A stretch of DNA of 32,000 nt, taken from assembly GCA_048882505.1 (NCBI GenBank), contig JBHLRO010000013.1, positions 1-32,000 on the forward strand, given 5' to 3'. Below, one piece after another: positions 11,060 through 14,128 of the stretch (the first letter of the stretch is position 1; each line of letters begins with the position of its first letter). Source of the DNA: Candidatus Thorarchaeota archaeon (GTDB taxonomy: Archaea > Asgardarchaeota > Heimdallarchaeia > Hodarchaeales > Hodarchaeaceae). The notes under the pieces are model-generated. The model was given only the letters and a program-made list of their open reading frames with translations, was not told where the DNA came from and made no database searches. A program made the translations under genes and the position numbers.

Positions 11060-11392
11060 TTAGATTACACGATACTTCTTTTTTTGACTTATTCTGTATT
11101 TGGCTACGTTTTCCTGAATTCTTGTCTCGGCATCAGGGGGAATAAGAATAGGTTCTGGAGCTATTCGATCTACTACACCAGATTCCTCAATATGAATTAC
11201 TTTAATTTCACTCAAGTACGCCAATCCGCAGAGGAAGAGACTCCATGACACATTAGCGTTAACTAAGGCCTTCAGCTCTTGAACGGTTATGGCCGCTTCT
11301 TCTCGCAGCGCCTCCAGTTTTTTCAGGATCTGGGCCACAACACCAAATTTCTGGCTAGATTCGGATTCACAAGGCATGGGGAGTCTCTTCAT
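11060..11392 (-). CDS. Hypothetical protein, possible winged helix
   Basis: 110-aa ORF overlapping the upstream gene end and 15 bp from the receiver start; ITVQELKAL...GLAYLSEIKVIHI resembles a wH pattern. Confidence 0.6.
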   Translation of the reverse strand: MKRLPMPCESESSQKFGVVAQILKKLEALREEAAITVQELKALVNANVSWSLFLCGLAYLSEIKVIHIEESGVVDRIAPEPILIPPDAETRIQENVAKYRISQKKKYRVI

Positions 11393-11786
11393 TGTTCTTT
11401 TTTTCCAATTCCTCTCTCACCTCATTGACCTGCCGCTGGATCTCCCCAATGATCTTATCGTATGGTTGAAGGAGACGTATATCGATATTGTCGAATTCTT
11501 GGACATTCGAGAGCCGATTCTGAATCAGGTTTGGCAGGCCCATGTCAGGGATGTATACAATCCCTTCTCGAATCAAACGAAATATCTCATCCAAAATTTT
11601 AGACTTTTCTTCGATGGTTTGGATCCCTAATGCTTTCAGGATGAAAGATAGGTTCTGAACAGGTGCATCCTTAAAGGAAAGAAGAATCAAGACGCGATCG
11701 GCCAACTGGGCCATCTGTCCTGCTTGAATCTCTTCCTTGGTTTTGACGACTTGCTTAAGGCGATCGTTCATTCTCCTAGTCTCCAT
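11367..11786 (-). CDS. Hypothetical protein, possible winged helix plus C-terminal coiled coil (139 aa)
   Basis: ATG at 11786 (or 11771); LSFILKALGI...ILDEIFRLIREGIVYI, then a heptad-rich tail IQRQVNEVREELEKK. The ORF track extends to 11846. Confidence 0.62.
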   Translation of the reverse strand: METRRMNDRLKQVVKTKEEIQAGQMAQLADRVLILLSFKDAPVQNLSFILKALGIQTIEEKSKILDEIFRLIREGIVYIPDMGLPNLIQNRLSNVQEFDNIDIRLLQPYDKIIGEIQRQVNEVREELEKKNNEETPHAL

Positions 11787-11809
11787 GTAATCAATACTGA
11801 TGTACAACC

Positions 11810-12088
11810 TCACGGGCCCCCTGAGAATCCAATGAGTGAAAAGCACTGAGCCTCCTTTGGATCTTGAATGACGTTTAAACGCTCGCTGGTTAGGTTTTCG
11901 ATGAGATCGAGGAAGTAACGAAGGATTATCGTGAGCTCATGGGTAGCATAACGGTGAGGATCCTGCAATCTAATCTGTGCGAGCTGATCCTGCACTTCAA
12001 ATGAAGAAAAAAGGTTGGCACTAAGGTATATCAGTTGGAACACACGTTCTAACGGATATTCCGTCCCAAATTGTTTTGTAACAAGCAC
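11810..12088 (-). CDS. Hypothetical helical protein (92 aa, GTG start)
   Basis: Co-oriented and 23 bp from the next gene, protein-like composition; no family recognised. Confidence 0.5.
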   Translation of the reverse strand: MLVTKQFGTEYPLERVFQLIYLSANLFSSFEVQDQLAQIRLQDPHRYATHELTIILRYFLDLIENLTSERLNVIQDPKEAQCFSLIGFSGGP

Positions 12089-12404
12089 TTAGTTAACATC
12101 CTGCCTAGATCGCCTTGTATCTGTGCAGGATATATTCTAATGCAAAAAAGCAATAAAATAGAAGGTTCCCTAAAATTGACATATTCCAATTCTGGATGTC
12201 AACAATGGGGTAGGAATATAATGATGAAAGATAAAGAAGCCGTCTTAATTCATATAATTAAACATTGTAAACTATGACAAATCAAAACTCAGTGTACACT
12301 ACCCTAGATTTAAGAAGGGACTGATACACCTATCTAACTTCTTCGAACTCTCACGGAGTAGTGGAGGAATAAAGGGTTAGAAAAAAATAATTTCCCTAAT
12401 TTCC

Positions 12405-12554
12405 TCAATCTACTCCAGATCTAACAGCACCCGCTGCGACTTCTGTCATGGAAGCACCTAGGAAAAGGAGGATAAGAAGCAACCATGGTAGGAGTTTTAT
12501 TAGGAGCAATTTTGGATCTATGGATTCGATTCGGTTTCGTAATTTTTTCTGCAT
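12405..12554 (-). CDS. 49-aa signal-peptide-like precursor (MQKKLRNRIESIDPKLLLIKLLPWLLLILLFLGASMTEVAAGAVRSGVD)
   Basis: Below the ORF-track cutoff. SD GAGGTG (12561-12566) lies 6 nt before the ATG. Basic n-region, Leu-rich h-region and V-A-A / A-G-A cleavage-like sites. A T-rich tract and an imperfect hairpin follow the stop. Confidence 0.65.
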   Translation of the reverse strand: MQKKLRNRIESIDPKLLLIKLLPWLLLILLFLGASMTEVAAGAVRSGVD

Positions 12555-12649
12555 TCATTACACCTCATTTTACTTGTATATGATTTTTGTTTTCGAGATA
12601 CCAATCATTTTTACCTGATCGGTAATGCTGACATTTTCTCTAGGAACCC

Positions 12650-12657
12650 TTATAAAT
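12650..12657 (+). promoter_or_regulatory. TATA-box-like element for the double-HTH regulator
   Basis: TTATAAAT ending 22 nt before the GTG start at 12680. Confidence 0.4.
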
Positions 12658-12679
12658 CTGGTGGTGGTCGTACTAGGTT

Positions 12680-14128
12680 GTGCAATCCGCAAAATCCAAT
12701 TCTGTTACTAATTGCCTGGAAACAATCCAACAAAAATCAGAAATTTACCAGCTTGATCCATTCGTTGCGGATTTTTTACAGATCTGGTCGGAAGTTCATG
12801 AGAATGCAGTAGGAGCATCCTTGGACGATTTGATGCCGATAACGAAAAAGATCTTGCATAATAATGTACTTCCCTTTTTTGAGAAATTCAAATCAGATAC
12901 CTGCATAAAAAAAGTGGACCCATGGCTGGATACACATTCATCAATTGTCCTAGCATGGAAAAATCGTGGGAATTATTTTCTCCCTCTACACCTAGTAACC
13001 TACGAGATTTGTTATCATCAAAAGAATATGCTTCTGTTCTTCCTGCGCCGCTTAGAAACAAAGGAGATACTCGGAACCAAAGAAGATCTATTTGATTTCC
13101 TTCTCCCCATTTTGACGAACTTCGTTGTTCCCTTGGATGACATCGACATTGGGATCCTGAAGACTTCTATTCTCTTGGAGCAGGGGCCCCAACAGTTTTC
13201 CCGCGCATTCTCTCACGATGCCTATACTCCGTTTATTGAAATGTCCGCACGGAACATCATCCGAAGGCTTAATAGACTTAGGCTTTTGGACGTGATTGGG
13301 GCAGTCTATTTTGTTGATATGGGGCAAATTGGCTATGAAACATCGCTTTTATTCCATACCAATGACTTCCCTCAGCAATTCCAAGATTATCTCCTTTTTT
13401 CGGGGGCAACTCCCCTAGGCAATTTCAGTATTGTTCAGATTCCTTATCGGAAAACACAGACAATTCATCGGCTTCAGGAATCGTTAGAATCAGTTCTCCT
13501 CTATCCGTTAAGCCGACGGGTCATGAGCTGGAATTTATCAGGACTAATTCCAGGAGAAGATCCGTGGCAAAAGCCGCCCACCCTTCTTTACGGGATTCCT
13601 AAGAAAGATCTTATCAGTCCGTCCCCGAGAATAGATCTATCCTTAGAACCATTTGGAAATCCATTTGAATTATCCCCTGCAGACATTAAGATTCTGGATT
13701 TTTTAAGCAGCCAAGGAGATGCCGCCAACCTAAAGAGTTTGAGTAATGCAGTTAAAGTCTCTGTTAAAACCATATCAAAATCCTTTCAACGGTATAAGGA
13801 TCATAATTTAATTAACCGAATGGCCCAGTTCTTTAGCCTTGGATTGGATCTTTCCATCTTCTTTTTCATGTCTATCGAAGAGGACTCAATACCCTGGGTT
13901 GACCATTTTTTGACCTTCCCAAAGGTGGATGTCTTTATCCACAAAGAAAACTCGGTTTCAACCTATGTAGGCTATCTAAAAATCCCCAATAAATGGATTA
14001 AACCGTTTTCTCGTAACATGGATAAGATAGTAAGGGCCCTCCGGAATACAAATATCAAATTCTACCATAAAATTATCAGTTCTATCGATCACTTTAAATG
14101 GGGAATTTCTCTTCGGAAGACCTTCTAA
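12680..14128 (+). CDS. Transcriptional regulator with two Lrp/AsnC-type HTH modules and an unknown N-terminal domain (482 aa)
   Basis: HTH1 at aa ~152-218 (LDDIDIGIL...SARNIIRRLNRLRLLDVI...VDMGQIG) and HTH2 at aa ~331-389 (LSPADIKILDFL...LKSLSNAVKVSVKTISKSFQRYKDHNLI...LGL), each followed by an alpha/beta segment. Confidence 0.78.
   Translation: MQSAKSNSVTNCLETIQQKSEIYQLDPFVADFLQIWSEVHENAVGASLDDLMPITKKILHNNVLPFFEKFKSDTCIKKVDPWLDTHSSIVLAWKNRGNYFLPLHLVTYEICYHQKNMLLFFLRRLETKEILGTKEDLFDFLLPILTNFVVPLDDIDIGILKTSILLEQGPQQFSRAFSHDAYTPFIEMSARNIIRRLNRLRLLDVIGAVYFVDMGQIGYETSLLFHTNDFPQQFQDYLLFSGATPLGNFSIVQIPYRKTQTIHRLQESLESVLLYPLSRRVMSWNLSGLIPGEDPWQKPPTLLYGIPKKDLISPSPRIDLSLEPFGNPFELSPADIKILDFLSSQGDAANLKSLSNAVKVSVKTISKSFQRYKDHNLINRMAQFFSLGLDLSIFFFMSIEEDSIPWVDHFLTFPKVDVFIHKENSVSTYVGYLKIPNKWIKPFSRNMDKIVRALRNTNIKFYHKIISSIDHFKWGISLRKTF

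Follow-up and report, generated by a model that had tools for sequence, protein, structure and literature searches.

What is a 49-codon open reading frame (ORF) doing when it stands head to head with a large regulator gene in an Asgard archaeon? The window analysed here, a stretch of 32,000 nucleotides, is contig C13 of a 4.3-Mb Asgard metagenome-assembled genome (coded G000; 94.6% complete), whose relatives bear the labels Heimdallarchaeota, Hodarchaeota or Hodarchaeales. On its minus strand the small gene occupies 12405..12554 (ATG at 12552-12554), and a 482-aa regulator ORF with a GTG start follows on the plus strand at 12680..14128. A re-reading of the ORF list upheld the divergent arrangement and the 125-bp control region between the two (12555..12679), as given in the original prediction, which had proposed a peptide-pheromone precursor beside its sensor. 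We put at about 0.5 the probability that the pair is a peptide-ligand/regulator cassette of one Hodarchaeales-type Asgard lineage, in which a short C-terminal product of the small protein is the ligand of its cognate regulator. Its recurrence throughout one Hodarchaeales-type group of Asgard archaea makes the pair a credible candidate for peptide signalling in archaea. The analysis supports the reality of the small gene, the conservation and co-duplication of the pair, the double Lrp/AsnC fold of the regulator and a predicted complex with the small protein's tail in a pocket.

The 49-aa ORF proves to be a real gene. Its shortness, the abundance of small ORFs in AT-rich intergenic DNA and a 45-aa ORF (12421-12558) that overlaps it in another frame would suit a chance open frame in a promoter-rich spacer. 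Four lines of evidence exclude that explanation. Among seven moderately related genomes, the ratio of non-synonymous to synonymous substitution rates (dN/dS) was 0.22 in the proposed frame compared with 0.65 and 1.75 in the two shifted frames, so that purifying selection is limited to the proposed frame. The closest relative (L009/L011; regulator 77% identical) carries a 50-aa homologue at the same position with conservative substitutions and a single in-frame 3-nt indel, and conservation ends just beyond the stop codon. About 40 homologues occupy the same position. A 20-member peptide profile retrieved 27 clusters among 5.8 billion proteins (best E 1e-21), all 48-68 aa long, all from Hodarchaeota-type archaea and, where named, all called 'hypothetical protein'. 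The 45-aa ORF was ruled out as the coding frame because of the shifted-frame dN/dS values.

Selection is uneven along the small gene, with a more constrained leader (dN/dS 0.14-0.15) than tail (0.45). The Shine-Dalgarno-like GAGGTG (complement of 12561..12566) stands 6 nt before the ATG, as well spaced as had been claimed, and its GGTG core recurs in most orthologous loci, visible as a conserved plus-strand CACC in the intergenic alignment. The description of the ORF as unannotated has to be withdrawn: its 50-aa orthologue is a called gene in GCA_048881705.1, many relatives are listed by NCBI or JGI as 'hypothetical proteins', and the protein collection includes the 49-mer of the window itself (P0053). 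Searches of Pfam and NCBIfam returned nothing above cut-off for the 49-mer, the regulator or the neighbouring p92, p159 and p110 proteins. In the same seven genomes, synonymous divergence (pS) was lower in the small gene (0.43) than in the regulator (0.64-0.71), which hints at an extra constraint at the nucleotide level. A minus-strand run of seven T (12381-12387), 18-24 nt past the small-gene stop, may be an archaeal oligo-T terminator; it is absent from the closest orthologue.

The regulator and the small gene are inherited as a pair. A regulator profile matched 91 clusters among 1.84 billion representatives, and within the class the family was confined to one GTDB genus-level group (21/21 genomes). 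Type-1 orthologues were defined as regulators 37-77% identical to that of the window and were counted only where the upstream region was readable. In 18/18 other genomes they were accompanied by a ~50-aa ORF on the opposite strand, at a spacing kept across orthologues (111-173 bp upstream, mostly 140-142). A second subfamily, with regulators 25-30% identical, showed an equivalent divergent gene at 17 of 20 loci, whose product follows the same leader logic and has the tail G[IV]A-DP-T.PPP... One far relative (P0108, locus L072) also has a divergent peptide gene, and four others (P0111, P0122, P0143 and P0119) have no divergent mini-gene with a transmembrane segment; only some members of the regulator family thus have the pair. 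In one far relative only a 13-aa ORF was found, MTLVDGPSEPPGN, which may be due to chance. These results bear out the expectation that regulator homologues would stand opposite short divergent ORFs in which the leader is conserved and the C-terminal tail varies more.

Within the source genome the pair has multiplied. The genome encodes nine regulator paralogues, four of them clustered on contig C14. When two peptide profiles were run by hmmsearch against all 31,884 small ORFs of the genome, the best five matches adjoined five of the nine paralogues. Tandem extra regulator copies usually lacked a peptide gene. Conversely, two orphan small-protein genes lie far from any detectable regulator paralogue (C7:21278-21433, plus strand; C14:81884-82045, minus strand), and both encode the same transmembrane end and the tail NPAGGPIPPRT. 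The genome thus holds at least five peptide-regulator pairs plus orphan receptors and orphan peptides, and the pair has been retained through repeated duplication.

Three further loci of the family have layouts of their own. A family member on contig C1 (C1:460406-460549, plus strand) has the tail ALAPPPNPPAGGH; it shares its strand with the C1 regulator paralogue and lies ~320 bp downstream of it, not divergently upstream. The C14 cluster (C14:65750-75463) comprises four full regulator paralogues, a C-terminal fragment (68455-68529) and one peptide gene (68963-69157, minus strand). At L072 (1034-2371, minus strand; GCA_016839955.1), the divergent 49-aa peptide gene is followed by genes for a 103-aa protein, an Arf-family small GTPase and a TrmB-type helix-turn-helix (HTH) protein.

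To sequence profiles the regulator is nearly silent. Pfam gave no match at E 0.1 except the RuvB_C winged helix (E 0.078), and the NCBIfam models Lrs14, Sta1 and Lrp matched residues 329-408 only, covering the second HTH, far under their cut-offs. The AlphaFold2 model, built from 29 homologues (predicted local distance difference test score, pLDDT, 82; predicted template modelling score, pTM, 0.80), consists of an N-terminal domain and two winged HTH (wHTH) domains, each with a RAM-type alpha/beta unit. The N-terminal domain (residues ~1-150; 12680..13129) is mostly helical with a beta-hairpin at residues 89-101; it had no usable Atlas feature match, and all of its structural rows stayed at template modelling (TM) scores below 0.5. 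Module 1 spans residues ~152-300 (13133..13579) and module 2 residues ~330-482 (13667..14128; wHTH at residues 333-374). Foldseek searches of the PDB placed NirDL first (4czc, E 5e-7; 4ch7, E 1e-6) at 8-9% identity, followed by dozens of classical Lrp/AsnC regulators with probabilities of 0.97-1.00. Matches among AlphaFold Database (AFDB) clusters were archaeal proteins of ~190-1,210 aa, many named Lrp/AsnC or ArsR, with E-values down to 1e-18. The Lrp pattern S..[TI]..RR..L, its basic residues invariant, is retained in both recognition helices; in that of HTH1 (residues 189-202), S189, R191 and R195 are invariant and R196 nearly so.

The model and the fold searches therefore agree with two Lrp-type HTH modules behind a ~150-aa domain of no recognised fold, as first proposed, with Pfam silent. 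No tetratricopeptide repeat (TPR) match to the regulator was obtained from Pfam, the Foldseek PDB search or the AFDB clusters. The claim that the protein is built on an Lrp scaffold, and not as a TPR receptor of the RRNPP family, is likewise borne out by the double Lrp/AsnC fold. In its modelled fold only, the regulator is an Lrp/AsnC protein; by the family's sequence profiles and by its usual single-module build, it falls outside.

Co-folding of the regulator with the small protein predicted a complex. With our own row-matched alignments of 20 pairs as input, the interface score (ipSAE) was 0.80, 0.80 and 0.78, compared with 0.00 for all three controls. The calibration mark was reached by 58/80 solved complexes and by 2/110 mismatched pairs, counts that apply only roughly because our own alignments were used. 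The runs had at least 82% of contacts in common, and the pLDDT of the partner was 62-65. On the peptide side the interface comprised residues 31-33 and 35-49 only, leaving the rest of the leader and the transmembrane segment free, and the lowest-error contacts all fell at residues 42-49, the octapeptide GAVRSGVD that a cut at V-A-A|G would leave. The codons of this putative mature peptide, with the stop, lie at 12405..12431 on the minus strand. The predicted pocket is shared by three parts of the regulator: the N-terminal domain (residues 79-104 with the hairpin, and the loop after it at 142-147), HTH1 (residues 197-209, the C-terminal end of the recognition helix and the next strand) and module 2 (residues 345-353, 382-392, 432-434 and 466-474). 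It mixes invariant residues (W82, P143, L145, G346 and K434) with positions that vary between subgroups. No solved structure of an Lrp/AsnC protein bound to a peptide is known to us, which makes it unlikely that the pass reflects a memorised complex. When the regulator was co-folded with the peptide, then, the tail and not the leader sat in the pocket (0.80 versus a best control of 0.00).

The small protein is built as the original prediction described it. The 49-mer, MQKKLRNRIESIDPKLLLIKLLPWLLLILLFLGASMTEVAAGAVRSGVD, has a basic N-region (residues 1-19, with K3, K4, R6, R8 and K15, plus K20), in which R6 and R8 are invariant in the family; a hydrophobic core, LLPWLLLILLFLGA, at roughly residues 20-35, which holds K20 and the invariant P23; and a tail, MTEVAAGAVRSGVD, at residues 36-49. 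Past K20 the core runs for ~14 residues and then gives way to S/T/G/A. Cleavage sites were set by inspection with the (-3,-1) rule, which pointed to V-A-A|G and A-G-A|V, and the C-terminal peptides considered were GAVRSGVD, AAGAVRSGVD and TEVAAGAVRSGVD. The type-1 leader follows the pattern M.K.[LIV]R.R....[DN].EL.LLK[LI][LI]P[WL] before the hydrophobic core, and the tail follows [AST][ST]S.G.A...G[PG]....[IVLWF][DE]-stop. In both subfamilies, plausible -3 and -1 positions are repeatedly taken by small residues, with G-x-A| and V-x-A| as orthologue columns. Opp-type binding proteins of the same genome begin with similarly built signal peptides of 27-40 aa that end V.A| or A.A|. The genome encodes one archaeal signal peptidase I (SPase I) and at least eight Opp-type (PF00496) binding proteins.

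Charge is distributed asymmetrically throughout the family, at about +3 or more on the N side with a net negative tail. Since nearly all Lys and Arg lie on the N side, the tail should face the outside of the cell (N-in/C-out), and a tail that binds a cytoplasmic protein from this topology must be released and taken up again. Two other export signals were rejected: a Tat signal, for which the invariant arginines form R-x-R, 8-10 residues ahead of the core in the alignment and not consecutive, and a class III (type IV pilin-like) signal, for which ..D.EL.LLK-LLPW.. offers no G or A after the basic residue.

The control region carries conserved signals of its own. Alignment of 20 intergenic regions revealed a 24-nt element, AATGCTGACATTTTCTCTAGGAAC (12624..12647, plus strand), with the family consensus.AT.CGGA.A..TT.TCTAGA.A. 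It holds the small palindromes ATCCGGAT and TCTAGA and lies directly upstream of the TATA-like box of the regulator, TTATAAAT (12650..12657, plus strand), ~26 bp before the GTG, where the alignment has a conserved TT(T/A)TAAAT column. Judged from the usual archaeal spacing between TATA box and transcription start, this distance points to a regulator mRNA that is leaderless or nearly so. Judged by its position and palindromes, the 24-nt element is a natural candidate for an autoregulatory operator. Its position weight matrix (~20 bits) also matched at C43:5633, C37:5446 and 2591, and C4:159825, where the flanking genes formed no coherent regulon. An Rfam search of 11800-12900 gave chance-level matches only, so no known RNA explains the conserved spacer.

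Elsewhere in the genome, the 24-nt element occurs twice in tandem in the C14 cluster, at 69157 and 69183. On C37, copies of a spacer-like motif, TCTCCGGATAATGCCATCCG.., at 2591 and 5446 (minus strand) share ~70 nt of extended similarity and may be a repeated promoter or small-RNA element.

How might such a pair work? Under the cassette reading, export and release of the peptide, the site of cleavage, import, binding to DNA and the sign of regulation are all inferred. The 49-mer would be a Sec-type pre-peptide, with its basic n-region, K-LLP-W hydrophobic core and small-residue c-region, that inserts N-in. Signal peptidase I would cut near V-A-A|G and free a C-terminal peptide of ~8-12 residues (...GAVRSGVD), which could re-enter the cytoplasm, for example via one of the genome's Opp-type transporters. 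There it would dock, probably by beta-strand addition, in the pocket to which the N-terminal domain, the second RAM domain and the end of the HTH1 recognition helix all contribute. Occupancy of the pocket would alter binding of the regulator at the conserved element beside its own TATA box in the 125-bp region, and the altered binding would tune the pair and possibly the linked p92/p159 genes.

Several results weigh against this cassette reading, and some of them favour other explanations. The choice between signal peptide and anchor is the weakest link of the pre-peptide reading: counted from L16 the hydrophobic stretch is ~20 residues long and, like the long conserved N-region, fits a permanent membrane anchor equally well. 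Where the family as a whole has its G-x-A column, the window reads T-E-V, so no single cleavage position holds for all members. The Opp transporters and SPase I are generic and unlinked to the locus. The long N-region, with its invariant R6 and R8 and a dN/dS of 0.14, is conserved beyond the needs of export. The predicted pocket evolves more slowly (dN/dS 0.06) than the rest of the regulator (0.10) and gives no sign of fast pherotype-style co-diversification, and the co-fold result is the model's own confidence, not a measurement. The proposal of a peptide-sensing circuit on an Lrp scaffold stands in part: the divergent pairs, the double-Lrp fold and the tail-in-pocket co-fold speak for it, and the over-conserved N-region and a pocket that is not fast-evolving suit a plain signal peptide or a pherotype poorly. 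A somewhat unlikely alternative that draws on the same points is an uncleaved single-pass membrane microprotein (N-in, C-out; an effector, a membrane-active toxin or an accessory subunit) that is merely regulated by the Lrp-like protein, the two proteins never touching and the co-fold being a false positive. A hydrophobic stretch of ~20-22 residues that contains the snorkelling K20 and the invariant P23 would suit it, as would the long conserved cytoplasmic N-region and a pocket without accelerated evolution, and divergent regulator-target gene pairs are common. It accounts poorly for a co-fold score of 0.80 versus 0.00 in controls that is specific to the tail and leaves leader and transmembrane segment free, for small residues past the core that match the genome's own signal-peptide cleavage sites, and for a pair kept through several paralogue duplications with subfamily-specific tails, which exceeds the usual link between regulator and target. 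Even as a membrane microprotein under Lrp control, the small protein would be a clean case of a ~50-aa gene that is conserved and under selection but carries no label beyond 'hypothetical protein' in public records.

Tail binding could also take place entirely within the cell, with no extracellular loop: an unexported precursor might serve as an anti-regulator by feedback or titration, or an N-out/C-in fraction might tether the regulator to the membrane. The co-fold favours tail binding as such and the conserved N-region hints at a cytoplasmic role, but the family charge pattern predicts N-in/C-out and a ligand confined to the cytoplasm would have no use for a hydrophobic leader kept at a dN/dS of 0.15; we regard this arrangement as quite improbable. 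Because the best PDB match of the regulator is an enzyme, a siroheme decarboxylase, the fold alone is no proof of DNA binding, and the double AsnC fold of the 482-aa protein might be that of an enzyme or a chaperone that modifies or processes the tail of the mini-protein, in a pairing like that of ribosomally synthesised and post-translationally modified peptides (RiPPs). The match to NirDL (4czc, 4ch7) and the prediction of the tail in a deep, conserved pocket would agree with such a role. Set against them are the merely 8-9% identity to NirDL, the invariant basic residues and the Lrp-type S..(T/I)..RR..L pattern of both recognition helices, the conserved palindrome-containing element in the shared promoter region, and surroundings with neither haem or tetrapyrrole genes nor RiPP maturases, which together leave the enzyme or chaperone a very slim chance.

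The closest functional parallel to the cassette reading lies in the RRNPP pairs of Bacillota and phages: PlcR-PapR, NprR-NprX, Rap-Phr, Rgg-SHP, PrgX-PrgQ and AimR-AimP. In these as here, a precursor gene of ~20-50 codons (PapR has 48 aa, AimP 43 aa) adjoins a gene for a cytoplasmic regulator, divergently in Rgg-SHP and PrgX-PrgQ. The precursor is mostly an export signal with its active part at the extreme C-terminus, which here is a prediction; a single genome has come to carry several pairs whose tails differ, together with receptors and peptides that are orphans; and Opp-type importers are present in the genome, here unlinked to the locus. The window differs in its host, an Asgard archaeon, in the unusually conserved N-region of its leader, and in a regulator that has a helical N-terminal domain and two Lrp/AsnC modules instead of the TPR fold. 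By analogy, the pair is RRNPP- or arbitrium-like in its logic and not a member of that family.

By architecture, the regulator resembles the Lrp/AsnC feast/famine proteins, such as Pyrococcus FL11/PH1519, M. tuberculosis LrpA/Rv3291c and E. coli AsnC, in having a wHTH followed by a RAM domain, here twice, in keeping the recognition-helix pattern and in placing a RAM domain at the (predicted) ligand site. Those proteins are single-module chains of ~150 aa, whereas here two modules are fused in a 482-aa chain behind an extra 150-aa domain and Pfam models stay under threshold. Their ligand is a free amino acid bound at the RAM-RAM interface between dimers, whereas the predicted ligand here is a gene-encoded peptide tail in a pocket shared with the N-terminal domain and HTH1. 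NirDL/AhbAB, the best solved match, likewise combine two AsnC-like modules, in a single chain or a heterodimer, but are enzymes of haem d1 and alternative haem synthesis at 8-9% identity, lack the extra N-terminal domain and belong to a tetrapyrrole gene context that was not found at this locus.

The papers searched contained no prior description of such a pair and no archaeal RRNPP or peptide quorum system. To our knowledge, no peptide-based cell-cell signalling is known from archaea, and the cytoplasmic peptide receptors of this logic that we know of (RRNPP, AimR) are all TPR proteins of Bacillota and phages. Going by the models, an unrelated scaffold, double Lrp/AsnC plus a new N-terminal domain, seems to have been co-opted for reading a peptide encoded by a gene. 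We would advance only tentatively, as a possibility that the odds do not favour, the broader claim that this is the first gene-encoded peptide communication system in Archaea, with secreted C-terminal peptides of ~50-aa precursors, N-domain plus double Lrp/AsnC receptors that arose independently of the TPR-based RRNPP proteins, and several orthogonal channels per genome. If confirmed, the use of this scaffold as a peptide receptor would make peptides a new ligand class for the Lrp/RAM family and would be a case in which propeptide/receptor cassettes evolved convergently in different domains of life. It would also offer something concrete and testable with which to approach social or developmental behaviour in the Asgard archaea, which are placed closer to eukaryotes than any other archaeal group.

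Downstream of the small gene, on the same strand, lie genes for p92 (11810-12088), p159 (11367-11846), p110 (11060-11392) and a stand-alone receiver; the first three form a module at 11060..12088 that was recognised by its linkage at other loci. At 11 of 16 other loci the pair has homologues of p92 and p159 beside it, which follow the small gene in some cases and the regulator in others. The P0002 contig carries genes for proteins of 97, 139 and 110 aa that match p92, p159 and p110 as judged by size only, and for p110 itself the closest orthologue (L009) and the C14 paralogue were the sole places where it was seen. The three proteins are possibly the regulated output of the pair. Taken together, the genes near the pair encode small winged-helix proteins, a receiver, a Nudix protein and an M20 peptidase; the window and the compared loci held no tetrapyrrole or haem genes and no RiPP maturases near the pair. 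The AlphaFold2 model of p159 shows a winged helix with a long C-terminal helix and weak fold matches of MarR, PadR or AspA type, and its Atlas matches (0.90-0.91) led only to clusters without known function.

At many loci two copies of p159 stand in tandem, and the C14 cluster has its own p92/p159/p110/receiver set at 70987-72460. The p110 protein gave weak matches to DUF6432 and ABC-3C MC6. The ~90-aa p92 family (window, L039-L050) always ends in GG plus one residue (..TGGF, ..SGGY, ..GGGI, ..SGGP), a C-terminus resembling that of a ubiquitin-like or SAMP precursor, though the sequence looks helical.

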